Assembly: GCA_050187295.1 (NCBI GenBank)
Contig: JBFWXQ010000009.1
Location: forward strand, 16,785 to 80,784
Direction: 5' to 3'
Length of the DNA: 64,000 bases
Source of the DNA: Blastocatellales bacterium
GTDB lineage: Bacteria > Acidobacteriota > Blastocatellia > RBC074
Shown here: positions 1,478 through 23,600 of the stretch, piece by piece
Layout: every line of letters begins with the position of its first letter
Position numbering within the stretch: the first letter of the stretch is position 1
Notes under the pieces: generated by a model
The model's database searches: none
Told to the model about the DNA's origin: nothing
Seen by the model: only the letters and a program-made list of their open reading frames with translations
Made by a program: the position numbers and the translations under genes

Positions 1478-1496
1478 TCGCTTTGACCAACCGGCC

Positions 1497-4349: not shown

Positions 4350-5893
4350 TCAATCCTTTTGATGCGGCCTTCAACCTTAGGAGCGACCTCACCGACAGCC
4401 TTGATGAAGTTGGCCAGAATCGTGCTGTCAATTTCAGCCGATTCTTCATTGATCAGGAATTTCGCCCCCTTGAACATTGTGTAACCGTCGCCACCGCCAA
4501 TCAGATAAGCATTGGATGACAGGGAGTAGGTTTTCTTTTCATCCAGCGGCTGGCCATTGACCGTGACTTTTACCACCCGCGAACCGGTTGGTTTGCGGCC
4601 ATCATATTCAAATGCCAGACCTGACACCTGCGGAAAACGCCCGTTTTCTGATTCTTCGACAACCCGGCTGACTCCGTTTTCCAGCGCGGCTTTGATCTGA
4701 GCGCCAGTCGCTTCAACTTTCACCACTGGATTTTGAAACGGCAGGATCGAAATCACATCGCGTTTGGTCAGCGCGCCGATGGCAAAAGTCGTATTGGCGC
4801 GAATCGAACCACCGTTGAAAATCACCACATCAGAGTTCGTTCCCTGCCTCAATGAATCTGCAATCAGATTGCCGAGGTTCGTTTCGCGATTGCGAACGTT
4901 CGCGTTCAGCGCGTCCAAAGTGACCGCAGTCCGACCAATCGGTTTATCCATTTCGGCTGACAGCTTGTTTTCGTAATCATTGATGATGGCAGCGGCGGCG
5001 GGATCATCAGGAGTTGCGTCTGTCACAGGAATGCCCGCCCAATCAATGCTTTCAATCGTGTGAGTTGTGGCATTGACGTTCAGATCAATTCGGCCAAGTG
5101 TTCTGGCGTCCGACCCCCATTTGAAAATCGGAGTGCGTCCGGCCTGTGATTGCAGCAGTTCATGTTCATGTCCGCCCAGAATCACATCTATCAATCCGGT
5201 GCGCGCCAAATTCTTGTCCTCACTCATTGCCAGGTGTGTAACCGCAATGATGATCCTTGCGCCTGCGGCTCGCATTTGCGGAACCAGTCTTCTGGCGGTG
5301 GCAATTGGATCAATGAAACGCACGTTATCTCCGGGGCTGGAGCTGGTTTTTGTGTCAGTCGTCAGCAAGCCAATGATCCCGATTTTGACACCATCGAAGT
5401 TGCGAATGACGTAAGGAGGCATTCCGTTGAATGTTTTTCCCGTGTCGCGGTCAATGACGTTTGATCCCAGCCAGACGAATTTCGATTCTTTCATACGCTG
5501 AATGAGTACGTCGTTGCCGAAATCAAATTCGTGATTGCCCAGCGCGGCGTAATCCAAACCGATGGCATTCCAGACAGCGATCACCTGCTCGCCTTTGAAA
5601 ACTGTGGATGCGACTGACGGAGAGATTGTATCGCCAGCGAGGAAAAACAATGTGTTGGGCGATTCCGCCAATATATTTTTTCTCAATGTAGCGACGCGCG
5701 CGAGTCCGGCGTTTTTGCCTTTGTCAACCGGCGATATTTGGTAAACGTCGTTTAGTTGCAAGAGCGTAATTCGCAACGTTCGATCAGGTTCCGGCTTGGT
5801 ACTTGTTTGCGCCTGGACGGAAACGGCAAGCAGAGCCAGTGAAGCCAGTAGAGATAAAGCAATTCGCCGCAATACACGAAGGGGGGAGTCCAT
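4346..5893 (-). CDS. Bifunctional UDP-sugar hydrolase/5'-nucleotidase (UshA family), exported
   Basis: Signal peptide; metallophosphatase motifs [24 protein letters not shown]; C-terminal [17 protein letters not shown] and FPQVSG. Confidence 0.92.
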
Positions 5894-5987
5894 ATCGTTA
5901 ATCCTCCAGAAAGGTTTTGACAGAGTTGTTGTATAGCGCGGATGAAACTAACACAGGCCGGGTTTCAGATGAAATTGTCAGGAAGGC

Positions 5988-6019
5988 AAAAAAAATGAGG
6001 AGGCTAACAACGCCTCCTC
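5988..6019 (-). terminator. Intrinsic terminator after PDZ gene
   Basis: GAGGAGGC-taacaac-GCCTCCTC stem with an adjacent A-tract on + (U-tract on -). Confidence 0.65.
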
Positions 6020-6083
6020 GTAATTCGGGTCCGAAAACGTTCGGACACCTCACCCTGAACACCAAACACACACTCGAAAAACT

Positions 6084-7130
6084 CTATCGCTGACCGAACT
6101 GGACTTTGATGATTTGCTCTTCGCGATCCCGGACGATGCCGATTGCTACTTCATTCGCATCCTTTTCATCTTTATCAGTTCGATCCACCAGGCGGTTCAA
6201 ATCTGCCAGCGAATTTACCTTTTCGCCGTTGACGGCAATTATGCAATCTCCAGCTTTAATACCTGCGATCTCAGCGGCGGCGCCTGCTCTAACCTCGTTG
6301 ACCAGAACTCCATGGGTTACGTTGAAAAATTTTGCCAGTTGTTCATTCAACTGCGTAACGCGCACTCCTAACTGATAACGAGCGGCAGTAATGTTGTAAC
6401 TCAGACGCCGGGCATTTGGATTAATTTGTACCTTGCCTTCGCGTAATTCTTTTTCAGCCCAAGCCCTACGTTCTTCAGACGATTTGCGGAAAACCTTTTC
6501 TTCTTCCATTAAACGCGCAGCTTCTTTTTCATCGCCGCGCTTTCTTGCTTCTTCAGCCTGCCGCAACCGATCTTCAGCCGCATCCAAATCGGCATCGGCA
6601 TCGGCGAAAAGCTTCTGCTGATCGTCGCGTTGTGACGCCCGACGCTGTCCCAAACTGACGGCAATCTGTTTAACAATCCCCTGACGACTGACGCCCAACA
6701 TCACATTGTTACCTGGACCAGAATTGCTCAACAACTTATATAACTGTATCGGATTGTAGATTTGTTGATCGTTGAATGCGAGAATGACATCATTTTCTCT
6801 CAGCCCCGCTTTTGCAGCCGGACTGTCATCTTCCACCTTTCCAATAACCGCGCCGCGCGCTTCTGAGAGCCTTAATTCTCTTGCGCGATCTTCATTGATG
6901 TCACCTAGATAGACACCCAGAAATCCCCCGCCGCTTCTGTTACGAGCAATAGTAAAACCAGGTGTTTTGGAATCTTGAGTTACGTGCGGGATGCTCGTAT
7001 CACTCGACTGTGACAAAGCGTTGATGGATACAGCAGCAATCAGCAATAAAAACATCATCAACCTGACTAATTCAGTTCGCGAAGAACCGCGAACTGTTTT
7101 TCTAAACAGAGTCGAAATTTGATGACGCAT
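6084..7130 (-). CDS. Exported tandem PDZ-domain protein (DegP-like PDZs, no protease domain)
   Basis: Signal/TM segment; two PDZ domains (GFLGV...DSPAAKAGLRENDVI; QLGV...AAEIAGIKAGDCII) separated by a coiled coil. Confidence 0.8.
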   Translation of the reverse strand: MRHQISTLFRKTVRGSSRTELVRLMMFLLLIAAVSINALSQSSDTSIPHVTQDSKTPGFTIARNRSGGGFLGVYLGDINEDRARELRLSEARGAVIGKVEDDSPAAKAGLRENDVILAFNDQQIYNPIQLYKLLSNSGPGNNVMLGVSRQGIVKQIAVSLGQRRASQRDDQQKLFADADADLDAAEDRLRQAEEARKRGDEKEAARLMEEEKVFRKSSEERRAWAEKELREGKVQINPNARRLSYNITAARYQLGVRVTQLNEQLAKFFNVTHGVLVNEVRAGAAAEIAGIKAGDCIIAVNGEKVNSLADLNRLVDRTDKDEKDANEVAIGIVRDREEQIIKVQFGQR

Positions 7131-7193
7131 ACTTCGTGAAGATGATTACTACTTTGGCGTGTCCGATGCCGATCTCGCTTACACAGAGGGTTC

Positions 7194-7218
7194 AACGCCG
7201 CATCTCTGTCAAAGTTCC
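7194..7218 (-). promoter_or_regulatory. ECF (sigmaE-like) promoter upstream of PDZ gene
   Basis: Minus strand GGAAC-N16-CGTT, 64 nt upstream of the ATG. Confidence 0.5.
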
Positions 7219-7297
7219 ACAAAAAATTTAAATGCTCACATATATGGAAACAGCTGCGATCCAATGTCGCTGACACTTGAAGCCTGATAATGAATTG

Positions 7298-7864
7298 CTA
7301 CCCTTTGCTCAATTCGCGGTGGAGCCAGGCCTTCGCCAGTCCCCAATCCCGCATGACTGTGATCGGTGAAACCTTCAGCACCTCGGCAGTCTCATCAACA
7401 CTCAACCCTCCGAAATATCGCATTTCGACAACCTTGCTTTTGCGCAGATCAATTTTCGCAAGTTCGTTTAGCGCATCGTCAAGCGCGACAAGTTCAGCAA
7501 CAGGGTGATCGGACACAATCAACGCCTCATCGAGCGATACCTGCAGATTTCCTCCACCGCGCTTGTCAGCCTTTCTGGACAATGCGTAATTCACCAGAAT
7601 ATGGCGCATCGCCTGTGCCGCCACAGCGAAAAAGTGCGAGCGGTTTTGAAAATGTTTTTCTGACTGACCGAATATCTTGATAAACGCTTCGTGGATCAGC
7701 GCAGTGGTTTGCAAAGTGTGCCCGGGTTTCTGACGCGACATATGCTGTCTGGCCATCTGGTGTAGATCGTCGTAAATCAGCGGCATCAATTCATTCAGCG
7801 CCTCTTGATCTCCGTCTTTCCACTTGATCAGCAAATGAGTTATCTCATGAGTTGAAGACGACAT
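7298..7864 (-). CDS. ECF RNA polymerase sigma factor, kinase-associated type (TIGR02999-like)
   Basis: Likely start [12 protein letters not shown] at 7864 with GAAGGGA RBS; [68 protein letters not shown]. Confidence 0.92.
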
Positions 7865-7974
7865 AAGCGTTCCCTTCTTTCGACCAGGATAACTACGCAA
7901 TTTCCAGGAAAATATTAACATCAGCATCTTCGCCTGACTAAGCCAACCCGAAGAATGATTTTTTTTCGCCGGTA

Positions 7975-8017
7975 ATGATAGTTCCAACCGAGGAATTCTG
8001 TTTATTAAAGTGAGAGC
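7975..8017 (+). promoter_or_regulatory. Conserved 43-bp promoter-like motif, copy A (divergent from ECF gene)
   Basis: ATGATAGTT-ccaaccgaggaat-TCTGTTTAT-ta-AAGTGAGAGC; same layout as copies B and C. Confidence 0.7.
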
Positions 8018-8185
8018 GAAAAAAACCGGGCTTCGAGCAGCGGGGGGCGGCAACGAAGGCTTCCCAGACCGACAACAATGACGAAAAGGAAAGGAAACGT
8101 GGCGATCAACTTCTGAACCACCAAAACATTTATTACGAAGCGTCTGGAAATTGCCATTAGGGAATATCGTGGTGCCACGATGCCT

Positions 8186-8230
8186 AAAAAACAACCGGGG
8201 TGAAAACACTGTCACCCCGATTGTTTTTTT
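8186..8230. terminator. Probably bidirectional intrinsic terminator
   Basis: AAAAAACAAcCGGGGTGA-aaacactg-TCACCCCGaTTGTTTTTTT. Confidence 0.75.
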
Positions 8231-8322
8231 GGCTGTTTTTGAAAGCAGCTTTTGAAATTCCCCCCGGCCAGGCCAATCGCAAATGGATTGGATAACGAAG
8301 AACAAAATCCTCAAAATTGGAC

Positions 8323-11300
8323 TTATGATTTACTTCGGTCTTGGCTGCCTGCACCTGGTTTCGATAAAAGCAGTTCTTTTATTTTTACCTGGGCTTTGTA
8401 ACTGTCCCCATCAGATTCCAATGCATGTAGAAGCATGATTATGTTTACTGATGATGCTGCGATTGTTTTCCCATCCGGCGAAATGGCCAGCCTGTGAATC
8501 AGGTTTTTATGCCTGACAGACAGCAACTCCAGACCGGTACCGACATCCCATATTTTGACAGTTCCATCAAAAGATCCTGTTGCAACACGGTTTCCATCTG
8601 GGAAAAAAACGACGTTTATTACTGCTGCATGATGACCTACGAGGATAATATTAATTTTGCTTGTCGCTATATCCCATAAACGGATCGTGCCGTCTGATGT
8701 TGCAACTGCCAGCGTCTTACCGTCCGGTGAATATGAAACCATCGCAACGCTTGCGGGTTGAGCTAAAATCTTAAACTCACCCATTGTTGCCAAATCCCAA
8801 ATTTTTACAGTTTTTTCGCCTGCAGTTGCCAGGTACTTACCATCAGGAGAAAAAGCCACCGAGGCTATTTCATCAGTGTGACCTCTAATGGCTTTGATTT
8901 CCCTGCCAGTATCAAAATCCCATATTCTGACCGTATGATCAGAGCTTCCAGTAGCCAGAAGCTTACCATCAGGAGATATTGATATAGTGATTATTCTTTC
9001 GGAGTGACCACGCATGGTATTAAGCAGTTTGCCCGTGGATGCATCCCAAACTGTTGCGCCACCATCGTTGTTAGCCGTTGCAATTCTTTTTCCATCAGGT
9101 GAAATACTTAATGCAATGACACCCGAACCACTGTCTCCAAATATTTTTGTAACAGTCATTGTGCTGAGATCCCAGATTTTGACCTCTCCAAGCCATCTTG
9201 AAGTGATCAATGATCGGTTGTCAGGTGAAAAGGCCATTGAAAAAACAGCGTTTGACTCGGGGTGCGATATGACGAATTGTTCCTGCTTTGTTGCAGTGTC
9301 CCATAACTTGATGACGCCATCCTTTCCGCTGGAGGCGAGAATCCTGCCATTGTTCGAGAAGGCCACTGAATCTATGCCTATTCCATGTCCCTTGAATTCA
9401 TTCAGCAGTTCCAGGGTCGGCGCCGAGTAGATTCTGACAATACGGTCAGAACCGCCAACAGCCAAAGAAGCTCCATCCGGAGAAAATGCAAGCGTTAATA
9501 CTGCCCCGGGAGTTCTAATAACTTTTCGCGGTAGGAGTGTAAGGGTTGCAGTTCGATGAAGCCTCTCAAGATTAATCGAGGCCAGGTCCCAAAGACAGAC
9601 TGTGGTGTTTCCGGCTCCTGTAGCCAGATACTTACCGTCGGGAGAGAAAACCATACTGAAAATCGGATCGAGCTGTCCTTTAAGAGACAGGAGTTCTCTT
9701 CCGGTTTCAGGATCCCATAGCCTCGTCAGGTAATCTACAGATCCTGTTGCGAGCAATTTGCCGTCAGGAGAAAAGGCAACAGACACCACCCATTCGGGAT
9801 GTGGTAATGTCAAAAGATTCTTCCCCGATCTGACGTCCCAGATCCTGACGCTCTTGTCTTTGCTGGCTGTGGCAATCGTCTTTCCATCCGGGGAAAAAGT
9901 GACTGCATAAACGGAAGACAAATGTCCCGTCAATGTAACCGTTTCTGCCCCATTGGTTGCATCCCAAACTTTTACAAAATTATCTTCCCCTGAAGAGGCA
10001 AGAGTTCGACCATCAGGCGAAATGGCGATGGACCAAACATTTCCCTGATGACCACTCAAAGTCATAATTCTTTTTCCGGTCAGGATATCCCATATTTTGA
10101 CCATCGAATCGAACCCGCAGGTTGCCAGTCTTGAGTTATCAGGAAAGAAAGCGACAGAGGATTCAACAAAATCCGATGTTGAGGCCGCGTCGTCCGAATT
10201 ACTAATGGATTTCAATTCACTGTTGGCCAGCCCCCAAAGGTAATTCCATTCAAAACCTCGCAGATCGCGCTCGCCGGGCTTTGGAATATGATTCTTCAGT
10301 AAATCAATCATCCTCGATACGCCAGCGTCTTCCCACGCTTTCATCGCCAGGTTCATTTGAGCGGCGTAGAGTTGTTGCCGATTTGTTTCTTCCCTTGATC
10401 TGGCAAGGTTTCGCTGCTGAATAGCAAGGATGGCCAGAATAGAAATGATCACCAGAATCACCGCAGCAATCGCTGCAGTTCGAATGATACCTCGCCTGTA
10501 GGCGGCTCGTTGGCGGCGAAGCTCTGCGTCTGGCATGTGCTCCTTAATCCACTCTCGGTCAAAGACGCGTTCGTAAATCCGATTTCTGACTTTCAGATAT
10601 CCATCCTGACGACGGGTGATACCTGACAAATGCAGCGCCGTGACCAGCAGATTTGTTTCGTCATCGGCCACACGTTTCCCACTGTGAACCTCGTCGTAAA
10701 GCGTCAGCAAACCGGCGACTTCGACATCGCTGCGGAGCAGACGTTCGCGAACAAAGATCAGGTTGTCGTCGCCATCCTGTGCCCGGCGCGTGAAAAATAT
10801 CTCCTCACACAAACGGTCTATGCTGTGGCCATCATTCGCTTTTCCATCTTGAGAGATTGCCAAACAGAGCCGCTGTGTCAGATACGGATGACCACCAGTC
10901 CAATAAAAAACCCTGTTCAACAATTCAATGCCTATCTGCTTATCCCGACCCAGCCCCTGGGCCAGTGGCGCGGCTTCCTCTTTAGTAAAGTCGCGGAGTT
11001 CGATTCGCTGGCCAATGTTGAATGGCGTCATCCGCGTATCGCGTATCAGGTCTGAGGGGGAGGCTACGCCAAGCAGGCAGAAGGTCAGTCGCTCCAGTTC
11101 GCTTTCGGATGTTCGACGATTGTAGAACTCACGGATTCCGGCGAAGAATTCATCGGTCGAAAACGGCAGACTGCGGACTGTGTCAATCTCGTCAATGAAG
11201 ATCACCAGTCGTCCCGGGTAACGCGGCAGCACGACTTCATCAATGGCGCTCATCCATCGCTGCAACAGGCCGAGCCTGGGATGGTTGAACCAGAATTCTT

Positions 11301-11637
11301 CCAGTTCATCTTCCAGTTGTAGCTGGCGGCCAATCCGGCTGAGCAATCCGTCATACCACTGCTCTGCCGTCAGGTTCTGGCCGATGGCCGTCAGGTCAAG
11401 CACAGCTACACCAATCCCGGCTTCGCGCAAACGCGCTGCCGTTCTGATCATCAGGCTGGATTTACCCATCTGGCGCGAAGTGAGCACGTAGCAAAACTGG
11501 CCTTGTTTGAGATTATCAAACAGGTATTGATCGGCCTGGCGATGGACATAACAGGCGGCGTCGCTGCGAAGAGTCCCGCCGGTAATGTAAAATTTGGATG
11601 TGATGGACTGCCCCATCGAAGTCTCACGGTCAATCAT
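8323..11637 (-). CDS. AAA_35 NTPase - TM - WD40 repeat protein, paralog 1
   Basis: Walker [10 protein letters not shown], Walker [25 protein letters not shown]; TM segment [19 protein letters not shown]; roughly 13-14 GH...WD repeats. Confidence 0.9.
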
Positions 11638-11787
11638 GGCTGTCTCTTCTCGTAATTCAGGCAGTGATACCTACATTCATTCAATTAGTACACGTAACTA
11701 GTGATATACAATCTTCGTATAAACCGATGTCATAACCTACCAGATGCAGTCTTTATTAAAATGAAAATGAAGCTTTCTGATTGAAAT

Positions 11788-14700
11788 TCATTGAATACCA
11801 TCTATCAATTTAGCCAGTCTTACCTTTTTTAATTTCATTGATTCTGCAGGGTCTACTGCCTGCCTTAAATAAATGAATTTTCCCTCTGAGGAGGCAAGAA
11901 CCCTGCCATTGTTAGATATGGCCATACCTAGAATATTCGTATCATGCTTGATTGAAAGAAGTTCCTGTCCGGTCTCAATGCTCCATATCTTGACAAAGCC
12001 ATCTCCCCCTCCTGTCGCAATACGTTTCCCGTCCGGAAAAAAACAAATGTGCGTGATTTCTCCAACATGCCCTTTGAAAGTTACGATCTCTTTTTGAGTC
12101 TCTAAATCATACAACACGCCGATCCCATTCATACCACCATAAGCTAACTTTTTACCATCATCTGAATACCTTATTGCATAAATAGAGTTCGAACAACTGA
12201 GCAATAATAGCTGCTTCTTCGTCACAGTATCCCAAACTCTTATCGTACCATCATCGTTAGCGGTAGCAAGTTCATGACCATCAGGTGAAAATACAATAGA
12301 ATAAACATTTAAACCCTGATTATTGTTGAACGAATGAATTTCTCTCCCAGTGTTAACATCCCATATTTTAGCTGTACCGTCTAAGCTACATGAGGCGATT
12401 GAACGGTCGTCAGGTGAGAAAATAACACCATTCACAAAGGACTCATGACCAAACAAAGTTTTTAATTCTTGCCCTGTCGAAACATCCCAGATTTTAATTG
12501 TCTTGTCTTGACTTGCTGATGCCAACATTTTCCCATCGTGAGATACGGCTATACCCCAAACAACATCCTTATTCCCCTTGAAAGATCTTACCAATTGCTG
12601 GGTCTTTGTATCCCATAGGTGTACATCAGATCTCCCTCCTGTGAATAAATATCTTTCATCCTTTGAAAAGGCCAGTTTAAAATTTGAATCAACATTGTAC
12701 TCTCCATCTTTTAGAATCTTCTCCTGACTCTCTGAAAGATCCCATATCTTCGCGAAACCGTCTCGCCCATACGTTGCAAGCAATTTACTGTTTCCTGAAA
12801 ACTCTACAGCATCAACGGACATACCATGTCCTTTATATGTATTAACAAGTGCCAGATTGTCTGTAGAATAAATCCTCGCTTTTCTATCGTAACCCGCTAT
12901 TGCCAGCAATTTACCATCCGGGGAATAAGCGATTGATATAACGTGACTGCCGGAAATTTGTTTTTGACTCGAGTTATTATTCGCCTCGCTTCCATTATTT
13001 AAAATCGGCGTCCCTCGAACGGGGTCCCAAAACCGTGCCGACAGATCTCCTCCTCCTGTAACAAGGGTTTTACCATCCGGTGAATATCTCAATGAGGTCA
13101 CGTAAGCACTGTGCCCTTTTAATACTTTGTCTATACTACCCGTACTAAGATTCCAAATTCTTGCTATCCAGTCAAAACATCCAGTAGCAAGCATTTTGCC
13201 ATCGGGAGAGAAGTCTAAGCAGGTGACCTCTGCTGGATGCTGGAGTATTAATAATTTTCGACCTGTTTTTACATCCCACAATATAGCTTTTCCATCAAAA
13301 CTTGCTGTTGCAATTCTAGAACCGTCAGGTGAGAAACGAATTGAAACAATCAGATTTTGGTGTCCCTTTAATGTTACTAACTCATTCCCAGAACCCAGAT
13401 CCCAGATCTTTGCAGTTTTGTCCGCGCTAGCAGATGCAAGGTAATGACCATCAGGAGATACAGCGATCGATTGGATTCCGCTGGAGTGTCCCTTTAAAGT
13501 CATTATTTTTTTACCGCTGGCTATATCCCAAATAACAATTAAATTGTCATCGCTGCCAATAGCGAGTCGTTTGTTATCCCTTAAAAAAACCATTGAACCG
13601 TTCGAATTTCCCTGTTTTACTGTCCAAAGATCGCTGTTAGCCAGTCCCCATAGATAAGACCATTCAAAGCCACGCAAGTCTTTTTGACCGGGTTTAGGAA
13701 TCTGGTTATTCAGTAAATCTTCCATTATAGGAATTCCTGCATCTTCCCAGGCTCGCATTGCCAGATTCATCTGAGCGGCATAGAGCTGTCGGCGATTGGT
13801 TTCTTCTCTTGTTTGTGCCAGGTTGCGCTGTTGATAAGCGATAATAGCTAGCGTAGTAATCACCGCTACGATGACAGCCGCGATGGCAGAGGTTCGAATA
13901 ATACCGCGCCTATAGGCCATCCGCTGTCGCCGCAACTCCGCATCCGGCATGTGCTCCTTAATCCAGTCTCGGTCAAAGACGCGTTCGTAAATCCGATTTC
14001 TGACCTTCAGATATCCATCGTGATGACGGGTGATGCCAGACAGGTGCAGCGCCGTGACCAGTGAATTGGTTTCGTCATCGGCCACACGTTTCCCACTGTG
14101 AACCTTATCGTAAAGCGTCAGCAATCCGGCGACTTCGACCTCGCTGCGAAGCAGACGTTCGCGAACAAAGATCAGGTTGTCGTCGCCATCCTGTGCCCGG
14201 CGATTGAAAAATAACTCTTCGCATTTGTGATCTACACCTTTGCCATCGGTCACGACTTTATCTTCAGCGATTGCGCGGCAAAGCCTCTGCGTCAGGTAAG
14301 GATGCCCACCCGTCCAATAAAGCACGCGACTGATCAATTCGGTTTCCGACCTTTCATTGCCCCCAAGTCCTTCCGCCAGCGGTCGGGCTTCACCTTCCGT
14401 GAAGTCGCGAAGTTCGATTCGCTGGCCGATGTTAAATGGCGTCATTCGCGTATCGCGAATCAGGTCAGATGGGGAGGCTACGCCAAGCAGGCAGAAGGTC
14501 AGTCGCTCAAGGTCGCTTTCAGAGGTTCGGCGATTGTAAAACTCGCGGATTCCGGCAAAGAATTCATCGGTCGAAAACGGCAGACTTCGAACCGTGTCAA
14601 TCTCGTCAATGAAGATCACCAGTCGTCCCGGGTAACGCGGCAGCACGACTTCATCAATGGCGCTCATCCATCGCTGCAACGGGCCGAGCCTGGGATGGTT

Positions 14701-15051
14701 GAACCAGAATTCTTCCAGTTCATCTTCCAGTTGTAGCTGGCGGCCAATTCGACTGAGCAATCCGTCATACCACTGTTCAGCGGTCAGGTTCTGGCCGATG
14801 GCCGTCAGGTCAAGCACAGCTACACCAACTCCAGCTTCGCGCAAACGCGCCGCCGTCCTGACCATCAGGCTGGACTTACCCATCTGGCGCGAAGTCAGCA
14901 CATAACAGAACTGGCCTTGTTTGAGATTATCAAAGAGTGATTGATCGGCCTGGCGATGGACGTAACAGGCGGCGTCTCCGCGCAAAGTCCCGCCGGTAAT
15001 ATAAAAATTGGAGGATGAATTCTGCTGAATATCCGTCGAGTCTTTGAGCAT
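11788..15051 (-). CDS. AAA_35 NTPase - TM - WD40 repeat protein, paralog 2
   Basis: Same architecture; likely start [10 protein letters not shown] at 15051 (GAGG RBS; aligns with paralog starts). Confidence 0.9.
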
Positions 15052-15422
15052 GGCTTGCCTCGATTTATGACATTGGTCGAAAGGAGCAGGACACGTCAGT
15101 GAAATTCCTGCCAGCAATAAATCAAGTGCGAACTGCTGTTTTCCCAACTCCGCCGGGATCACTCAATGCATCAATAGCCAGGGGCATAGCTCCGGGCGGA
15201 GTGACTGTTTAATCTTGTGCAAGATAATACGCCAATTCACCAGCCGGTCAAAATAAAGTTGGTTGATAAGTTATCAACCCATGATTTGGACGATGAAAAA
15301 TATGAATCAGACTGTTTACAGGAAGAAAAGGTAAGAAATCCGTATGATTGCCGCGTCGGATCATCGGGAATAACGAGTGGTGAACGCTGCGAGTTAATTG
15401 AAGCATGCGCATATATCAGATT

Positions 15423-15536
15423 GGCGAAGCCTTTGGAGCGCTGCGGCTTGACGCAGCTTTGGCAGTCTTTCGGTTGGAGCACGCTCGGCTGGATTACCAA
15501 AGCGGTTCCAGGCAACCGCAGTCCAAAAGCTTCGCC
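15423..15536. repeat. REP/REPIN-like palindromic element, copy 1
   Basis: GGCGAAGCcTTTGGA...GCTTTGG...CCAAAGC...TCCAAAAGCTTCGCC nested inverted repeats; related to 24101-24191. Confidence 0.65.
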
Positions 15537-15567
15537 GATTCCATTTACGCACAGGCTTCAAATAAGT

Positions 15568-15641
15568 GTACGGTAGTCTGTTCCGACTGCAGAGGTTTTC
15601 CAACAGGGTATAACATCAACAGACCGGACAGACTACCGTAC
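15568..15641. repeat. 14-bp perfect inverted repeat (hairpin or REP-like) downstream of TPR gene
   Basis: GTACGGTAGTCTGT (15568-15581) ... ACAGACTACCGTAC (15628-15641). Confidence 0.55.
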
Positions 15642-15673
15642 GTTCAAATGAAAACCGAATTACACTCACCACG

Positions 15674-16546
15674 TTACTCTGAATCGTCGTCTAATCGTAA
15701 GTTTCTGTAATTGCGGCGGCAGGCAACAAGTTTGGGATGATCCGGATTAAGCGTCTGCTGGAAGATCGCCAATGCACGTCGCAACAATACTTCTGCTTCG
15801 TCATAACGCTGCTGTTTTTTCAACAACATCGCCAGATTGTTTTGTGTCAGGGCCAGGTCCGGATGGCCTGGCCCAAGCAGCTTTTCTTTCATCGCCAGGG
15901 AACGACGGTAAAGCTGCTCTGCTTCGGCGGTCTCTCCCTGCGCATTTTTTAGCGCGGCCAGGTTGTTCAGATTGACCGCGATTTCGTAATGCTCCGCACC
16001 GTATTCGCGTTCAAAGATGGCCAGCGCCCGGCGATAGAGCGATTCCGCTTCGTCGAAATTTTTCTGCCCATCCAGAATTGCCGCCAGCGCCGCCAGATCA
16101 GCGGCTACCTCGACGTGCTCCGGCCCTAAGGCTTTCTCTCTGATTTCTACAGACCGTCGCGCGAAGGGTTCACCTTTTGCAAAATTCCCCCGCGCGTGTT
16201 CCAACCCGCCCAGGTTGTGATACAGCGTGGCCATTTCAGTATGATCTTCGCCCAGATGCCGGAGCCCCAACTCGATTGCGCGTTGATAAAGCATTTCAGC
16301 CTGGTCGAATTGCCCGGAGTATTTGTAAAGAACCGCGTGATTATTGAGCACTGCTATCAGTTTCGGCGAATCTTTTCCCCACACCTGTTCAGCCAATGAC
16401 AATGCCTGTTGGAACAGTTTTTCGGATTGGACGTATTGACCTTGTTCACGCAACTGGTCGGCGCGATGCACCAAATTCCAAATCCGTCTTTGCGATTCCG
16501 CCTGAGTTGACTCTGTTGCAGTGCTCATTTTCATCGCCCCCAGCAT
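15674..16546 (-). CDS. Stand-alone TPR protein (TPR_10/TPR_12, 42-aa kinesin-light-chain-type repeats)
   Basis: About six repeats of the LNNLAxLY...AEQLYRRSLAMKEKLLGPxHP type; no signal peptide, HTH or CHAT domain. Start could also be MSTATES at 16528. Confidence 0.88.
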   Translation of the reverse strand: MLGAMKMSTATESTQAESQRRIWNLVHRADQLREQGQYVQSEKLFQQALSLAEQVWGKDSPKLIAVLNNHAVLYKYSGQFDQAEMLYQRAIELGLRHLGEDHTEMATLYHNLGGLEHARGNFAKGEPFARRSVEIREKALGPEHVEVAADLAALAAILDGQKNFDEAESLYRRALAIFEREYGAEHYEIAVNLNNLAALKNAQGETAEAEQLYRRSLAMKEKLLGPGHPDLALTQNNLAMLLKKQQRYDEAEVLLRRALAIFQQTLNPDHPKLVACRRNYRNLRLDDDSE

Positions 16547-16670
16547 CAATCCACTTCCAGCGTCTCCTTGTGATTCAGGGTATGGCGATCCCCTTCGGAG
16601 CGATCACCTCTTCCATTTCTCCGACGTCCAGTTCGATTTCTTCAACACAATTTGTATTTTCGTTTTTCAT
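16546..16670 (-). other. Unannotated small acidic peptide gene, apparently frameshifted
   Basis: RBS AGAAAGGAAG then ATG 16670: MKNENTNCVEEIELDVGEMEEVIAPKGIAIP* (stop 16575-16577). The -1 frame continues LNHKETLEVD*, and its TGA overlaps the TPR ATG (TGATG). Confidence 0.6.
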
Positions 16671-16751
16671 GGCGCTTCCTTTCTGTTTTCGATTCCGTTG
16701 TTGTTTCAAGAAACTATGCTGCTGTTTCCCGCTGTCTGAGAGCTTTTTTCC

Positions 16752-16794
16752 GCTCTCACTTACATAAACAGGATCGGCGCGGATAAACTATCAT
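16752..16794 (-). promoter_or_regulatory. Conserved 43-bp promoter-like motif, copy B (upstream of peptide-TPR)
   Basis: ATGATAGTT-tatccgcgccgat-CCTGTTTAT-gt-AAGTGAGAGC. Confidence 0.72.
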
Positions 16795-16927
16795 CGGCTA
16801 CAAAAAATTATCATTCTGTGAATATTTCGGTGATGAGCCTAAAGCGCACGGCAAGCACCACAGTCGTAACCTTGAGCACTCAAATATTTACTGCTACAAA
16901 AATTCTCAGCGCATACATCAAAAATAT

Positions 16928-16964
16928 TGGGCGGAGCCTCAAGCGTGTGCCTGAGTTTCCGCCC
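16928..16964 (-). terminator. Hairpin after TonB-like receptor gene
   Basis: TGGGCGGA...TCCGCCCA stem next to an A-rich tract on +. Confidence 0.5.
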
Positions 16965-17043
16965 ATTGATCTGCTGCTTTTGCGGGATACGGATGGCTCT
17001 CACCGCTTATCTCTGAATCAATTCCGCCTCACTCCTTATCACC

Positions 17044-20000
17044 CTAAAAATCCAGCCTAATCCCGAGTCTCAATCTTGCCGGGGTGTGATAGGACAAGGG
17101 CTTCAGGAAATCTTCGTTGTCCAGTCCAACTGCAATCTGCCGGTTCTGATCCGGCAGCCGCAACGCACGATTGTTGGTTACGTTGAAAATGTCAGCGACG
17201 AAGCTCAATCGCATGTGTTCGTTCAACCGGAAGACACGGTCGGCGTGCAGATCAAGTTGCGCGAAGAAAGGTGTTCGCCCCAGTTTGCCACGCCCGCCTG
17301 CAGGAACTTCACCGGGGTTAATGTAAGCCGGGTGAGCGAGCAGTTCGCTAATCGGCACGCCTGATTCCATGTGCAAGCCCGCGCCGAGATTCAACCCTTT
17401 CAAGCGACGGGCTAATCCCTGTCCGCCGAAAGCGTAGCTTCCATAAATGTTCGCAATGTGGCGGCGTTCGGTGTTGAGCGGGCCGTCCTTGAATTGATCT
17501 CCGAGCAGATTGAAATCGCCCGCAGTGAAATCAAACAGCGAACTGATGGCGGGATCGGTCTGGCCGTTGTCGTTGCGCAAATGACCTTCAAAGTTGCCTC
17601 TGAGCGAGGCAATCCGCCAGTTGGTCAGCAATTGCCAGTTGTTGGAAAATCGTTTGTTCAATTCAATCTCAACTGCGCGGTATTTGTGTAGCGGATCTGG
17701 GAAGCCGTCAGGGACGCCATCTGCGCCGGATTCACCCGCAGGCTTGCCGTTCTTGCCCAGTGCCTCGAAACAGACAGCGCCGACAACATCGCCCGCGCTG
17801 TTGGTGACAGCCGGATTGAAAAGATTCGGATCACACTGGGATGGCAGGTTGGTTGCCAGCCCCGTTATCGGGTCGTAATTTGGCACGAATCCGGCAGGCA
17901 ACACGTGAGAGATGGGATTGACCGCCGCATCCAGCTTCGAGTTGATATTGCCGACGAAGTAGGTCTGGCCAAAAAATGCTACGGCTTCCGGCGAAACTAC
18001 TGCGGCGTCTTCGACAATCCGCTTCAGCCTCCGATCAATGTAGCGCACGGACAAAAATAAGTTGTGCGGCAGTTGCTGCTCGAAGCCGATCAGGTGCTCC
18101 TGCGCGAAGCCCAGTTTTGTGCCCGGCAGGATTGGGTTAACACGATCCTGCGCTGACACTACAAATCCTCCGTCAATGCCGCCAGCGGTTCCACTGATGA
18201 AATGCGCCTGATCCACGACGGGAATAACAGAGCCGAATTGGTTGAGCTTGGCGCGTGGAACTCCATTAATCTCGGTGAATTCCGGGATAAACAGTGAACC
18301 AAGAATTGCCTGCTCGACCGAGAGCGAACGCTCGGCCAGGTCAAGCGGGATGTATTCATGGAAACGGCCAAAATTGTAATAGGCTTTCGTCTTGCCACGT
18401 CCGAATGGATCCACCGTCACGCCAAAGCGCGGCGACCATTGCCCCGTAAAGCTATAGGCCAGTTGTTTACCGCTTTGTTGTGCGTTGGGTGTGCCGAGGA
18501 TGCGCTCCTGTTCCCAGCGATAACCGGCGAGCGCGGTGACGAAACGATTGATGCGCCAAGTGTCTTGCGCGTATACGGCATGGTAATTCGATCGCGTGTC
18601 GAAATCTACATCCCCAAAGATCCCGTACAGAGTCTGTAAATAAATTCTGGTATCGCCCACGCCGGGTATATCCACCAGAGGGCAGAGCGGGCAGGTGTCA
18701 TCTGCAGGGAACAATCCAAAGATGGCTGTCATTGGTTGCCCGGCGGCTTTGGAATCAACCTGAACACTACCATCTGCGTTGGTGTTTGGAATGGTGAAAA
18801 TGGGGCCGCTAAAGTTGCGGGTACCTGCATAAAACGCGCGCTGATAAACATAGCCCAGACCCAGTGTATGCTCACCCCAAAGTGATACTCGTTTGGCAGT
18901 GTCTCCCGTCCAGCGATAAGTTGTCCCATTTGTCGGCTCATTAAATCCCAGCCCCTGGGCGGTGAACATGCCACGATCCGGTTGGGTGAAATCCAGGATG
19001 ATCGAAAGATTATCGAATCCCGTTTCGTTGAAGTTGTTCGTTCCCTGGCTGAATGCTGCGCTCACTGTCCAGGTTGAACTGAGCGTGCCATTGTAGCGCG
19101 CTGAGATATTGCGCGTTCCATATTCGAGCTGGCTGTTGGCCGTAGTGTTGTCAATGTTCAGTATTCGCATCGGCGCGACATTGGTCGTTGTCGGATCCCC
19201 AAAAATCGAGAAATTGAATTGGTGAGCCGGACTGAGGTTGTAGTCCAGTTTGAATGCGTAGTTTTTCGTAAAACTGCGACGGTGCGTTTGCTTGCCGTAA
19301 AGTTGGAGCAATCCTGATCCGGCAGCAGGTTGCACAATCGTGCGTCCAATGGTTGGATTGAACGAGCCGAAGAAAAACAGCTTGTCGCGCAAACCGGGAA
19401 CCGGACCACCAAGATCAGCACCACCCTCATAGCCCTCCGGGTGAATCACTTTGCCGGTTTTATTGATTCTGGCATCGTCGGGTTGAAGTCGCGTCGCTTC
19501 AAAGGACTGCGGCTGCGCATAACCATAGAAGCTGCCGTGATATTCATTGCTGCCGGATTTGGTAATGATGTTGACGATGCCGCCTTGCGCCTGGCCGTAT
19601 TGTGGCTCGAAGCCGCCGGTCTTGATCTGTACTTCCTTTATGTAGGACGTATTGATACCGACGCCAAGATTGCCATAGACACGTGAAAAGATACCAAGAC
19701 CGCCAAAAGCCGAATCCGTGACATTAACACCGTCTACCACGTACAAATTATCGAGAGCTGATCCACCTGAGATTGACGGGTTTGCCGCCCCGCCACCAAG
19801 GCTGTCCGCCACGCCTGGCGCTAGATAGAATACGCTCTGGACATTACGTCCGAGTGGCAGGTCGCGATAAAGTTGATCGTTCAAATTCGCCCCGACGGCG
19901 GTGCTAGATGTATCAACTCTGGCCGCACCTGCTACTACCTCAACCACTTCATTGATGTCTCCAGCTTGAAGCTCCAATTTCAGCACCAAAGTTTTACCGA

Positions 20001-20316
20001 CAAAGACAGGTGCGTCAGATATCGTCAGGGTTTTGAAGCCAGGCTGTTCAGCTTTTACCTGATAGCTGCCGGGGATCAGGTTTTGGAATTCGAACTCGCC
20101 TGATGAATTCGTCGTTAAAGCGCGTTCGCCAGTTGGTCCGGTGAGGGTTACTTTGGCATTTAGGATAACTGCGCCGGTGATATCTACAACCTTGCCGCTG
20201 ACATCCCCCTTCGTCACCAGATCCTGCCCCAGAGCGCCATTGGCAGCGAGCAGGGTGAGCAGACATACGCCAAACGCAAACTTCGCATAGATTTTCATGA
20301 GTGTTTTGTTTTTCAT
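17044..20316 (-). CDS. TonB-dependent receptor-like outer-membrane protein (Oar family, carboxypeptidase-regulatory N-domain)
   Basis: Signal peptide; GKVVDITGAVILNAKVTL; plug-like NLYVVDGVN and GGIVNIITKSGSNEYHGS; YAQDTWRI; C-terminal aromatic residue in RLGIRLDF. Confidence 0.9.
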   Translation of the reverse strand: MKNKTLMKIYAKFAFGVCLLTLLAANGALGQDLVTKGDVSGKVVDITGAVILNAKVTLTGPTGERALTTNSSGEFEFQNLIPGSYQVKAEQPGFKTLTISDAPVFVGKTLVLKLELQAGDINEVVEVVAGAARVDTSSTAVGANLNDQLYRDLPLGRNVQSVFYLAPGVADSLGGGAANPSISGGSALDNLYVVDGVNVTDSAFGGLGIFSRVYGNLGVGINTSYIKEVQIKTGGFEPQYGQAQGGIVNIITKSGSNEYHGSFYGYAQPQSFEATRLQPDDARINKTGKVIHPEGYEGGADLGGPVPGLRDKLFFFGSFNPTIGRTIVQPAAGSGLLQLYGKQTHRRSFTKNYAFKLDYNLSPAHQFNFSIFGDPTTTNVAPMRILNIDNTTANSQLEYGTRNISARYNGTLSSTWTVSAAFSQGTNNFNETGFDNLSIILDFTQPDRGMFTAQGLGFNEPTNGTTYRWTGDTAKRVSLWGEHTLGLGYVYQRAFYAGTRNFSGPIFTIPNTNADGSVQVDSKAAGQPMTAIFGLFPADDTCPLCPLVDIPGVGDTRIYLQTLYGIFGDVDFDTRSNYHAVYAQDTWRINRFVTALAGYRWEQERILGTPNAQQSGKQLAYSFTGQWSPRFGVTVDPFGRGKTKAYYNFGRFHEYIPLDLAERSLSVEQAILGSLFIPEFTEINGVPRAKLNQFGSVIPVVDQAHFISGTAGGIDGGFVVSAQDRVNPILPGTKLGFAQEHLIGFEQQLPHNLFLSVRYIDRRLKRIVEDAAVVSPEAVAFFGQTYFVGNINSKLDAAVNPISHVLPAGFVPNYDPITGLATNLPSQCDPNLFNPAVTNSAGDVVGAVCFEALGKNGKPAGESGADGVPDGFPDPLHKYRAVEIELNKRFSNNWQLLTNWRIASLRGNFEGHLRNDNGQTDPAISSLFDFTAGDFNLLGDQFKDGPLNTERRHIANIYGSYAFGGQGLARRLKGLNLGAGLHMESGVPISELLAHPAYINPGEVPAGGRGKLGRTPFFAQLDLHADRVFRLNEHMRLSFVADIFNVTNNRALRLPDQNRQIAVGLDNEDFLKPLSYHTPARLRLGIRLDF

Positions 20317-20460
20317 CTTTTCCTCCTGTTGGATAGGCCGTGTCGCGTGAACAAGCTGTTCTGGCAGAGGGAAGCAGAGGATCAGACAGGTCGCACCAGT
20401 TGGTTATTTGAAACTGGTTGCGAAATTTCCTGTTTCCTGTTGCTTAAGAGCCTGTTTTTT

Positions 20461-20503
20461 GCTCTCACTTGTATAAACAGGATTTCTGCAGAAAAACTCT
20501 CAT
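20461..20503 (-). promoter_or_regulatory. Conserved 43-bp promoter-like motif, copy C (upstream of TonB-like receptor)
   Basis: ATGAGAGTT-tttctgcagaaat-CCTGTTTAT-ac-AAGTGAGAGC. Confidence 0.72.
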
Positions 20504-20604: not shown

Positions 20605-23600
20605 CTATCTTTTTCCCTGCGTTCTGACTCGCACCTCGGCTTCAGTGGCGGCGGGCCAAAATTTCAAAGTGCCGTCGCGCCCGCCCGAAATCAAATTTTT
20701 GCCATCTGGCGAGAATATTACTGACAAGACTCCATTCGTGCTTGCTTTAAGGGTGATCATCTCCTGCCCTGTGGTTAGGTCCCAAAGTTTAACGGTATCG
20801 TCATTACCTCCAGTCGCTAATCTTGAGCCATCAGGGGAAAATGCTATGCAATTAAGCCAACTATTATGTCCTTTAAAAGTCATAAGTTCTCGCCCTGTGA
20901 TTACGTCCCACAATTTCGCGACACCGTCACTACTGGTACTGGCTAATTTCTTTCCGTCAGATGAAAACGCCACGACTTGGATCCCACCCAAATGTCCTTT
21001 GAGATTGATAACTTCTTGCCAGGTAGCGGTGTCCCACAACTTGATTGTGGCATCCGTGCCTGCTGTAGCCAGCCTTGTTCCATCAGGCGAAAACGAGACA
21101 GTCCATACATAGCCGGTGTGGCTCTTGAGTGTGGTTATTTCTCGCCCCGTCGCCGCGTCCCAGATCTTCACCATTTTATTCAAGCTCCCGGTAGCTACAG
21201 TCTTGCCATCTGGTGAAAGCGCTACGGTCGAAACATTACCTTCTGGCATTGTGAAGGTCATTATCTCCTGTCTTGTAGCCACATCCCACAGTTTTGCGGT
21301 GCGATCACCGCTCCCGGTTGCCAGCCTCTTTCCATCTGACGAAAAGCCAGAAGATTGGACAACCCCTTTATGCCCAACGAAGGCACCAATCTCTCGACCT
21401 GTAGTCATATCCCATAGCTTTGCGGCGCGGTCACCTGCGGTGGCCAACCTTCTTCCATCTGGCGAGAATGCAATTGAATAAACTCTGCTCGAATGCGCCT
21501 TGAGAGAAGTTGATTTCTGTATTGTTGCTAAATCCCAAAGTTTGATGGTGCTGTCCCTTCCCGCGGTGACCAAAGTCTTTCCATCTGGTAATAAATTCAC
21601 CGTCCATACTACATCTACATGTTTCTTAATCGTGGCCAGTTCTTGACCGGCAGTTACACTCCACAAACTTACTGTGCCGTCCATACTTCCCGTAGCAAGG
21701 GTTTCACCATCAGGTGAGAATGCTAATGACGAAACCATACTTGAATGCCCATTCAAGGTTGTTATTTTCTGTCCTGCTAGAAAATGCCAAAGTTTAATGG
21801 TGCCGTCATTATTTCCAATTGCCAGTGTATTACCATCTGGTGAAAATGCCATTGGTGAGCCGATGGACAACCTCACATTTGCTTGTCCATTGAGCGTCCC
21901 CAGTTCCTGACCAGTAGTGACGTCCCACAGCTTGACTTTTTTGTCGCCGCTGCTCATGGCTAATCTCTTACTATCCGCCGAAAACGCTAAAGAGATGACT
22001 ATCCCAATATTTCCTTTTAATCGCTTTATTTCTTCACCTTTGGCCACATCCAAAAGCTTCACATCGCCTTTGTAATCACCGCTGCCGATGGCGAGTATTT
22101 TGCCATCCGGCGAAAGTCGCATTCTTGATAATGAGTTGCTGCTTACGTCTAATTGCAGGGTGGATATTTCCTTGCCAGTAGCCGAATCCCATATTTTCCT
22201 TGAACCCTCAAGATTTACAGCGATCAACGATTTGCCATCAGCCGAGAACGCGACTGATGGAAATAGGCGCGTAGGGCTCTTAAGTGTAAGAATTTCTCTG
22301 CCTGTTTCCGTATCCCAAAGTTTCACAATAGGGAATACGTCGCTGACAGCCGCTAAGGTTTTTCCATTGGGAGAAACAGCAATTGAGGTAATGGCACCTG
22401 GTTGCTGAATCGTGCGTAAGCCGTTGTGACAAAGCCGCCAGAGGTAATACCATTCGAAGCCACGCAAGTCCTTCTGGCCAGGTTTGGGAATCTGGTTTTC
22501 CAGCAATTCTTCCATTCTTGGAATCCCCGCTTCATTCCAGGCCTGCATAGCCAGGTTCATTTGCGCGGAATAAAGTTGATAGCGATTAGCTTCTTCCTGG
22601 TTTTCAGCGCGAAATCGCTGTTGGTCAGCCAGTTTACTGTTCTCTTCTGCAATCCCTTGTTGAATGATTGCCATTCGACGCTGTTCTTCAGCGTTGGCGA
22701 GAGCGTTACGCGCTTGTTCATCGCTCAGGCTGGCTTGCCTGAAATTCTGATCCGCTCGGTCAGCTTCGGCCTTGGCAATATTCCTTTGCTGGTATGCAAG
22801 GAACGCAAGAGTCGTTATTACAACCAGAATCGCCCCCGCCACTGCTGTTGCTCTCAGAAGACCTTTTCGGAATGCGGCCTGCTGGCGACGCAGTTCAGCC
22901 CCTGGCATGTGTTCCTTAACCCACTCCCTGTCAAACACTTTGTCGTAAATCCGATTTCTAACCTTGAGGCTCCCCTCTTGAACTCGTGAAATGCCGGATA
23001 GTTTTAATGCCGTCACAAACGCGCTTGACTCGTCGTCTTTGACAGGCTTCCCACGATGCACCCGATCATAAAGCGTCAACAGTCCCGCCAGTTCCACTTC
23101 GCCGCGTAAAATCCGTTCACGAACAAAAAGCAGATTTTCGTCCACTTCCTGCGCCCGCCGATTGAAGAACAACTCTTCGCATTTGAGATCAACACTTTTG
23201 CCATCAATCACGCGATCATCTTCGGCAATAGCGCGGCAAAGCCTTTGTGTCAGGTAAGGATGCCCGCCGGTCCAGTGCATGACTCGATTGAGCAACTCAC
23301 TTCCAGTTTGTCCAGATCGCCCCAAACCTTCAGCCAGTTGGCCAGCTTCCTCTTCAGTGAAGTCATGCAGTTCGATTCTCGTCCCAATATTGAATGGAGT
23401 CATTCGCGTATCGCGGATCAGGTCTGACGGCGATGCTACGCCCAGTAAACAGAACGCCAGGCGTTCAAATTCCGATTCCGCTGTTCGACGATTGTAAAAT
23501 TCCCGAATCCCGGCAAAGAATTCATCTGTCGAAAACGGCAGGCTGCGAACCGTATCAATCTCGTCAATGAAGATCACCAGACGATCCGTATAACTCGGCA

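Follow-up and report, generated by a model that had tools for sequence, protein, structure and literature searches.

A 64,000-nucleotide stretch of contig JBFWXQ010000009.1 from a Blastocatellales bacterium (assembly GCA_050187295.1, positions 16,785 to 80,784 of the forward strand), hereafter called the window, carries at three sites a 43-bp motif made of three boxes, and one of these copies lies back to back with a gene for a sigma factor of the extracytoplasmic function (ECF) type. Here we consider what this motif is and which protein might read it. When the motif is written as ATGA(T/G)AGTT-N13-(T/C)CTGTTTAT-N2-AAGTGAGAGC, a pattern scan finds it with 0 mismatches at 7975-8017 on the plus strand (copy A) and at 16752-16794 and 20461-20503 on the minus strand (copies B and C, respectively), no further match appears in the 64-kb window at up to three mismatches, and none of 100 dinucleotide-preserving shuffles contains any match. 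Copy A consists of box 1 at 7975-7983 (ATGATAGTT), box 2 at 7997-8005 (TCTGTTTAT) and box 3 at 8008-8017 (AAGTGAGAGC). The first-pass annotation of this DNA had described three identically spaced copies with spacers ending in AT, T-tracts upstream, A-tracts downstream and a looser similarity beyond, and all of these are present: the last two bases of the spacer are AT in each copy, an UP-element-like T-run precedes copy A (7959-7966, plus strand), other T-runs stand upstream of copies B (16807-16802) and C (20514-20506), an A-run follows each copy, and weaker similarity goes on downstream (GCTCTC..CAGCGGGAAAC). To these can be added a similarity on the 5′ side of the T-run, shared by copies A and B (AGAATGAT), which had escaped the earlier description, and the repeat unit formed by the window copies reaches about 120 nt. 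The GAGAGC of the motif and the GCTCTC downstream pair as the arms of a hairpin, with the A-run as its loop. This hairpin is predicted for copy B at 16737-16758 on the minus strand (-13.3 kcal/mol, z -2.6), where it would form the 5′ end of the transcript, and for copy C at 20445-20467 on the same strand (-7.6 kcal/mol), and it is not predicted for copy A, whose 3′ arm is degenerate. All three copies are intergenic, as had been claimed; copies B and C face genes, and copy A faces about 300 nt that contain no credible open reading frame (ORF) and end in a terminator.

The gene beside copy A, at 7298-7864 on the minus strand, encodes a sigma factor of 188 aa with matches to PF07638 and TIGR02999. 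The longest ORF over this gene, 7298-8314 on the minus strand, would give 338 aa, is about 150 codons too long and crosses copy A; since Pfam matches residues 156-336 only, it is taken as an artificial upstream extension, and 7864 is the start indicated by Pfam as well as by homologues. From there it is 110 nt to copy A, which points away from the gene, and the divergent arrangement of copy A and the ECF gene is thereby borne out. The host genome, 7.49 Mb on 75 contigs, has 34 matches to PF07638, of which 22 are strong. Among these, the window sigma and a sigma encoded on another contig, C37, are mutual closest paralogues with 66.9% identity and sisters in a FastTree tree. They match PF07638 with E-values of 1e-53 and 3e-57, in agreement with a Sigma70_ECF-type sigma that has sigma-2 and sigma-4 regions only, score 215.6 and 235.5 bits with TIGR02999 (cut-off 126), and both have HTLQTTAL in place of the acidic DAED patch of region 2.2. 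They are also the only two of the 22 strong PF07638 genes that have the motif within 600 nt upstream: near these two sisters the motif scores 41.8 and 48.7, pointing away from the gene, and near the other strong PF07638 genes it scores at most 5.1 in either orientation. Toward the sigma gene in its own direction, the scores at the two motif-bearing genes are -11.5 and -9.1; judged from the sequence, the sigma is not autoregulated through the motif. Comparison of the region-4.2 recognition helices of the two sigmas with those of the other paralogues gave no clear specificity signal. On C37, the sigma gene is overlapped by a kinase-TPR gene behind it, and both read opposite to the motif.

How far does the motif extend beyond the window? 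The genome was scanned with a profile of the three copies and then with a fixed-register position weight matrix (PWM) trained on six strong sites, with the reversed PWM as control. The profile search detected, besides weaker matches, a fourth copy at C37:74145-74222 (E 7e-9), which is perfect and stands on that contig beside the closest paralogue of the window sigma. With the PWM, 7.49 Mb yielded six strong sites, all of them intergenic and scoring from 37.6 to 45.1, the maximum of the reversed PWM being 19.1 and the next matches after the six scoring 20-23. Downstream of the three window copies lie, for A, the non-coding leader of about 300 nt and then a terminator, for B, genes for a 31-aa peptide and a TPR protein, and for C, a gene for a TonB-type outer-membrane protein. 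The other three are C37:74160-74202, followed by three small repeat-peptide genes, a TPR paralogue and an HExxH-protease/HlyD fusion; C12:37156-37198, followed by the gene of a 2635-aa secreted Kelch-repeat protein; and C39:951-993, followed by that of a 244-aa secreted protein. At eight of the nine best sites a gene starts 8-200 nt downstream, copy A being the exception. The predicted regulon of the cluster's ECF sigma reaches beyond the window, for strong sites also stand on C37, C12 and C39. Several other candidates were set aside. Two of them came from a 19-nt sub-pattern with two mismatches, one on C13, which lies inside a long coding frame and has no box 1, and one on C33, whose profile E is only 0.3; PWM matches on C25, C43, C20 and at C37:76730, scoring 14-23, are regarded as borderline candidates only, because the reversed PWM reaches 19.1.

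Relatives of the host were scanned with the motif pattern, up to three mismatches being allowed, in 40 related genomes, in which the reversed-pattern control gave no match. The motif was present in 10 of the 40, that is, in nine of 21 genomes of the same genus and in one of three from other genera of the family, and in none of the 16 genomes of six other families. A PWM scan of the genome and of relatives had been proposed in the first-pass annotation, and of the scans described here the PWM scan of the genome gave the six strong sites and the pattern scan of relatives the ten motif-bearing genomes. In nine of the ten relative loci the motif has orthologous sigma and kinase genes to one side and repeat-peptide genes to the other, and the sigmas at those nine loci are 78-87% identical to the C37 sigma. 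(One motif locus, that of genome G023, is the same stretch as public record L056.) The window sigma was compared with 15 genus genomes: in eight of them its best match (63-74% identity) is always the sigma at the motif locus, and in the other seven the sigma matches do not exceed 59% and there is no motif at a peptide locus. Genome G027, of another family, has a sigma 64% identical to that of the window; the motif is absent from its vicinity, where PWM scores do not exceed -2.2. The peptide gene itself was found in 12 of the 40 relatives, and the strict motif precedes it in nine. Further peptide loci have a diverged motif (G007, PWM score 37.6) or a weak one (G021, 19.8), and in G005 the contig begins at the peptide genes, so that the upstream region falls outside it.

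Wider searches extended this picture. When 185,579 species genomes were scanned for exact matches, 11 loci came up, three of them new, in records titled as Blastocatellia or Acidobacteria metagenome-assembled genomes or as 'uncultured Heliomicrobium sp.', and sigma and kinase genes lie upstream at 10 of the 11. A metagenome scan gave 21 contigs with 18 new sites. Pooled, there are 42 distinct sites, from records titled Blastocatellia or Acidobacteria or related to these, and 37 of them can be assessed for adjacency to a sigma gene, the remaining five having too little flank. At 25 of the 37 an orthologous PF07638/TIGR02999 sigma gene is divergent with its start within 400 nt; all 25 motifs point away from the sigma, and in 21 of the 25 the distance is 100-125 nt. 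Where at least 400 nt of downstream sequence is available, a repeat-peptide gene lies within 400 nt downstream at 19 of 35 sites. Three metagenome contigs, L089, L092 and L093, come from a sub-clade with sigmas 71-74% identical to the C37 sigma; in these the motif stands immediately before the HExxH-HlyD gene, and no repeat-peptide gene was detected between the two.

What kind of element is conserved in this way? The earlier suggestion of -35/-10-like blocks around a spacer of fixed length agrees well with the enlarged set, in which the register is kept over 42 sites and the spacer is free. From 5′ to 3′, the footprint begins with a T-run and the box (G)ATGATAG(Y)T. A spacer of 13 unconstrained bases, closed in most cases by TT, leads to C(C/G/T)CGTTTAT, and after two more unconstrained bases comes GGGTGAGAGC. 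An A-rich loop (8-15 nt) separates GGGTGAGAGC from GCTCTC, and a variable stretch of leader then runs to AAGGAG and the ATG. Over 23 sites, the boxes hold 1.6 bits per position and the 13-nt spacer 0.47, where it is to be noted that the search patterns themselves fixed part of the boxes. No pattern contained the T-run, the TT at positions 21-22, the 3′ arm of the hairpin, the ribosome-binding site or the gene context, and these are conserved all the same. At a secondary site on L061 (4471-4513, plus strand) the hairpin arms read GAGAAC and GTTCTC, a compensatory double change by which the pairing is kept. An open frame starts within 300 nt downstream at 22 of 23 sites, the exception again being copy A, and no gene is found on the opposite side at seven or more of the sites. 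Positions 25-27 are CG(T/C) at 39 of the 42 sites and TGT in the three window copies; the distance from TGATAG to CGTT is 17-18 bp, and this spacing together with the CGTT is ECF-like. A housekeeping -10 element is unlikely in the forward orientation, because no forward TAnnnT hexamer exists there, T being found at position 34 in only one of 23 sites; a forward-strand scan for the sigma-70 consensus (TTGACA-N16-18-TATAAT) also gave no match. We consider it very likely that the motif acts as a promoter in the forward orientation, whatever its exact type.

It is very unlikely, by comparison, that the motif is no promoter and is instead a structured leader RNA or a small repeat, dispersed or mobile, even though the length of the repeat unit in the window copies and the conserved hairpin after the motif would suit such an element. 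Assembled contigs from RNA libraries would suit it as well: two metatranscriptome runs of one study contain contigs identical to 16539-16770 (X10) and 16508-16825 (X11), which cover the 31-aa gene and its leader after copy B exactly, whereas copies A and C and the outer-membrane gene have no such cover, which is uninformative either way. Being assemblies, these contigs do not reveal where an RNA begins or ends, and they may stem from carried-over DNA. Rfam, however, gives 0 matches at gathering score over the whole window, and RNAalifold, run on 23 sites, gives no consensus fold over boxes 1 and 2 (-1.8 kcal/mol); spacer and flanks are randomised between copies in which the boxes remain exact. 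A dispersed repeat unrelated to gene starts, which the first-pass annotation had named as the finding that would speak against it, is also not what the distribution looks like: the strong sites are few, about six in 7.5 Mb, all intergenic and oriented to genes, and their syntenic position is constant across species.

Another possibility is that the element is to be read on the opposite strand, at least at the sigma-adjacent copies, where TAAAC(G/A)-N18-TATCAT would be a housekeeping promoter of the sigma-70 type for the sigma-kinase operon, either as the main role of the element or with the same 31 bp working in both directions. In copies A and B the opposite strand contains TAAACA-18-TATCAT, which agrees with the consensus at 9 of 12 positions including A2 and T6 of the -10 hexamer, and that of copy A aims at the sigma gene, a point that weighs against the reading as a forward ECF-type promoter. 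The constant distance of 100-125 nt to the sigma start at 21 of 25 sites would be easily understood, and so would the fact that copy A keeps all boxes without a forward gene. In addition, all 25 adjacent sites have A at position 1, the counterpart of T6 in the reverse -10 hexamer, as against 7 of 12 non-adjacent ones (Fisher p 0.0018, uncorrected for shared ancestry). Positions 34-35, however, differ equally strongly between the adjacent and non-adjacent sets, and the signal at position 1 may therefore reflect orthology only. Copies B and C, the sites on C12, C39 and L015 and the second site on L061 have no gene on the reverse side and abut the 3′ end of a gene on the same strand; copy C, having ATGAGA, breaks A2 of the reverse -10 hexamer and gave no reverse match in the scan; a 9/12 match is within chance, 1.8 being expected per 1.3 kb; and the conserved G7 and T9, box 3 and the hairpin would be left unexplained. 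There is, moreover, a separate TATAAT nearer the sigma gene: GATTATAG, which contains TATAAT on the sigma strand, is found in eight of the nine sigma-adjacent relative loci (L011-L021), at some 55-60 nt from the motif in the direction of the sigma gene, and at the corresponding place (7912-7917) the window has TAATAT. This GATTATAG is a candidate for the housekeeping -10 element of the sigma-kinase operon, and a separate TATAAT would go well with a sigma that is made constitutively and regulated through phosphorylation. A promoter on the opposite strand thus seems to us a rather poor candidate.

If the motif is a forward promoter, which factor reads it? From sequence conservation, register, orientation and synteny, we infer an assignment of the -35 and -10 elements, a start site, dependence on a sigma and control by a kinase, and the whole chain, namely an ECF-type promoter read, in this group of soil Acidobacteria, by the neighbouring kinase-activated PF07638/TIGR02999 sigma, is the explanation we favour, with somewhat more than even confidence. 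The first-pass annotation had left the assignment to this ECF as a supposition, and evidence of a purely comparative kind now supports it, in that the motif accompanies two of 22 sigmas and 25 of 37 sites are sigma-adjacent. Alternatively, the motif could be a forward promoter or regulatory site read by another sigma, an activator or a repressor, the sigma-kinase pair being merely a conserved neighbour. A genome with 34 PF07638 matches offers other readers in plenty, three boxes and a hairpin exceed what a minimal ECF promoter needs, and a winged-helix protein (Trans_reg_C) with an AAA_35 domain is encoded 760 nt upstream of the C39 site (L008 1756-3000), AAA_35 proteins being those that also fill the window. 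Against another reader speak the presence of the motif near no more than two of the 22 strong sigma genes, namely the two sisters, the same divergent geometry at 25 of 25 adjacent sites with 21 of them at 100-125 nt, the co-occurrence of sigma orthologue and motif across the 15 genus genomes compared, and the absence of any other regulator gene conserved at the loci; a dimeric operator would also be a poor fit, because the hairpin loop varies from 8 to 15 nt. We therefore consider another reader unlikely, though less so than a promoter on the opposite strand.

Several observations weigh against the neighbouring sigma and its kinase, and some of them would be equally at home with another reader. 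The -35 box (G)ATGATAG(Y)T has no AAC at any site, while AAC in the -35 and CGT in the -10 element are given as hallmarks of ECF promoters (PMC8103513, in the part consulted). Nor does the motif resemble the promoter predicted for proteobacterial ECF43, with GTC in the -35 and CAG in the -10 element, as given in the corresponding section of the classification (PMC7826278). The motif never precedes the sigma gene in its own direction, all 25 adjacent sites pointing away, so that adjacency alone links the sigma to the motif, and 12 of the 37 assessable sites, each with at least 700 nt of upstream flank, have no such gene beside them. Genome G009, which is 80% complete, has a site and no close sigma orthologue, its best match being 58% identical. 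In the window itself, the gene after the sigma encodes a PDZ protein and not a kinase, the nearest kinase being 16 kb away, and the sigma-adjacent copy, A, faces no protein gene that it could drive. Finally, contig X11 reaches beyond copy B on its upstream side by 31 nt, and the end of X10 falls within the -10 box; if these contigs represent RNA, some transcription crosses the motif.

For a promoter read by the neighbouring sigma, the following scheme can be drawn. RNA polymerase would meet a T-rich, UP-like run upstream of the -35-like box (G)ATGATAG(Y)T, and 17-18 bp further on a -10-like box YC(C/T)GTTTAT, whose CGTT or TGTT core resembles the CGT(T) of other ECF promoters. Transcription would start about 7 nt after the -10 box, inside (G/A)(G/A)GTGAGAGC, and this box would then serve as the 5′ arm of a hairpin at the extreme 5′ end of the transcript, by which the mRNA might be stabilised. 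The factor would be the divergently encoded PF07638/TIGR02999 sigma. It is presumably inactive until phosphorylated by a Ser/Thr kinase, because the DAED patch is absent and QTTA is present, as in ECF43. The ancestral unit in this lineage of Blastocatellia probably had the order kinase and sigma genes on one side, promoter, and then on the other side repeat-peptide genes, the TPR gene and the gene of the HExxH-protease/HlyD fusion, and the repeat-peptide operon is its predicted ancestral target. In the window genome the sigma gene appears to have been duplicated, the duplicate at 7298-7864 now sitting with three variant promoters, of which A would drive an orphan leader of about 200 nt, B the 31-aa peptide and the TPR protein, and C the TonB-type outer-membrane protein. 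In the genomes searched, no orthologue closer to the window sigma was found, and thus, as far as these genomes go, it is a lineage-specific duplicate.

The kinase nearest to the window sigma, a Ser/Thr kinase with an AAA_35 domain, is encoded at 24307-26523 on the minus strand, and over its N-terminus and kinase domain it shares 44% identity with the kinase after the C37 ECF. This gene and the AAA_35-WD40 genes are interleaved with the motif copies: those at 8323-11637, 11788-15162 and 20605-24009, all on the minus strand, are paralogues of about 1100 aa with AAA_35, a hydrophobic stretch and 9-12 WD40 repeats. The orphan leader after copy A (8018-8229, plus strand) is homologous to the leader of copy B and aligns with it as far as the ribosome-binding site, where the ATG has been lost and no peptide gene follows. 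It ends in a terminator-like hairpin with a T-run (8196-8219, plus strand), and 3′ of this lies the convergent 3′ end of an AAA_35-WD40 gene. With T-runs on either strand, the hairpin CGGGGTGA..TCACCCCG (8196-8229) between this leader and the WD40 gene that converges on it resembles a terminator working in both directions. The predicted product of copy A would be an RNA of roughly 200 nt, unless the copy is a relic. Behind copy B, the 31-aa peptide gene (MKNENTNCVEEIELDVGEMEEVIAPKGIAIP; 16575-16670, minus strand) is a single-unit relative of the repeat peptides of C37; it has been cut to one unit, and a remnant of the next unit remains out of frame. The TPR_10/TPR_12 protein gene after it (15674-16549, minus strand) has a paralogue on C37, namely the TPR gene behind the repeat peptides. 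Copy C precedes by 144 nt a gene for a TonB-dependent-receptor-like outer-membrane protein of 1090 aa (17044-20316, minus strand) with CarboxypepD_reg, OMP_b-brl_4 and a weak Plug match; upstream of copy C comes another AAA_35-WD40 gene and then a terminator-like hairpin, which was recognised by eye and is unlisted in the consensus scan.

On C37, the small genes after the motif (7132-7398, 7855-8148 and 8307-8621 on the plus strand of record L006) consist of tandem units of about 25 aa, the repeated unit being VE(V/I)(D/E)L..EE.E.VIAP...NHNET. No Pfam, NCBIfam or protein Atlas family was found for these peptides, the top Atlas match (0.75) being itself familyless. The 908-aa gene at the end of the locus is matched by the daptide HExxH-metalloprotease model over residues 19-401, with 196.6 bits under a model cut-off of 300, and by HlyD models over 504-889, and a weaker motif-like site (score 19.8) lies immediately 5′ of it. 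The peptide-TPR-protease/HlyD locus may be a multi-core system for secreted peptides or for something like ribosomally synthesised and post-translationally modified peptides (RiPPs). RiPP-like loci of the daptide type, which serve the export and maturation of peptides, resemble it in having an HExxH intramembrane protease and an HlyD adaptor, as the protease and HlyD matches on C37 suggest, and several small precursor-like repeat genes precede the fusion gene on C37. They differ in that the protease match here stays below the cut-off, no modifying enzyme was identified and the peptides are familyless; this comparison concerns the function of the regulon and not the motif. On C12, the Kelch-repeat gene (757-8664, minus strand of record L007), whose product also has PKD and He_PIG domains, begins some 25 nt downstream of the motif and is located directly behind a gene for a TonB-type barrel.

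The three window copies differ from all others in one respect. T at position 25 is found in copies A, B and C alone (three of 42 sites), and AA at positions 34-35 in these three and in some other non-adjacent sites; a metagenome scan for the window variant, with T in the -10 box and AAG at the start, gave 0 matches. The copies must be old, because their spacers share nothing beyond the final AT, and the variant appears to be maintained by selection, since boxes and variant are intact in all three while the three spacers are fully randomised. In copy A they have stayed intact despite the loss of the peptide gene, which suggests selection on copy A itself, for a small RNA or for some role toward the sigma gene. 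The promoter variant may have co-evolved with the duplicated sigma. Going one step further, the duplicate sigma might read TGTT-type promoters and the ancestral sigma CGTT-type promoters as an orthogonalised pair, a conjecture that we put forward tentatively and think rather doubtful as it stands.

Among known systems, ECF43 is the nearest counterpart. In the portions of the reports available to us, the ECF43 consensus has QTTA in place of DAED, and the second threonine is phosphorylated by the partner kinase (PMC13147305, PMC8999054), while the entry in the classification has the Sigma70_ECF domain together with a TPR-repeat kinase encoded at position +1 (PMC7826278). Like EcfP/PknT of Vibrio parahaemolyticus and EcfK/PknS of Xanthomonas citri, as far as the parts consulted describe them, the sigmas discussed here belong to Sigma70_ECF (PF07638) and have QTTA for DAED; the C37-type locus encodes a TPR-repeat kinase directly behind the sigma, a kinase gene also follows the sigma in relatives, and no anti-sigma factor is evident here. 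Unlike them, the duplicate sigma of the window has no adjacent kinase. The targets ascribed to ECF43 in those parts are a type VI secretion system and polymyxin resistance, whereas those predicted here are repeat peptides, a TPR protein, the HExxH-HlyD fusion and an outer-membrane receptor. The host is also different: in its ECF43 section, the 2021 classification places the group in Proteobacteria only (PMC7826278), and our host belongs to Acidobacteriota, class Blastocatellia. Canonical ECF promoters, of which that of EcfG (GGAAC-N16-17-CGTT) is an example, share with the motif the bipartite form, the fixed spacer of about 17-18 bp, the A/T-rich run upstream and a small specialised regulon. 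They differ from it, by the published hallmarks as far as consulted, in the -35 element, which is TGATAG here and not AAC, and in the TGTT of the window copies; a third box at the predicted start with a 5′ hairpin and the lack of sigma autoregulation are further differences.

Kinase-activated ECF sigmas, that is, ECF43 and its relatives, are widespread in Acidobacteria and Planctomycetes. Those that have been characterised in the sources consulted, EcfP, EcfK and the ECF43 sigma of Hyphomonas neptunium, are proteobacterial. A full-text literature search gave no account of such a motif or regulon in Blastocatellia, and a literature search on TIGR02999 found no paper. To our knowledge, the targets of acidobacterial kinase-activated ECF sigmas are essentially unknown. 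Because such sigmas are not autoregulated, the common approach of reading the promoter off the region upstream of the sigma gene fails. What the present analysis offers is a concrete candidate promoter, conserved in dozens of uncultured Blastocatellia, with its orientation, its spacing and its target operon, and the pathway can be tested in a heterologous host, so that culture of the organism is unnecessary. The same genome also provides a natural pair of paralogues in which promoter specificity can be studied. If the duplicate and ancestral sigmas do read different promoters, this would be a natural example of a kinase-gated ECF circuit splitting into two insulated channels.

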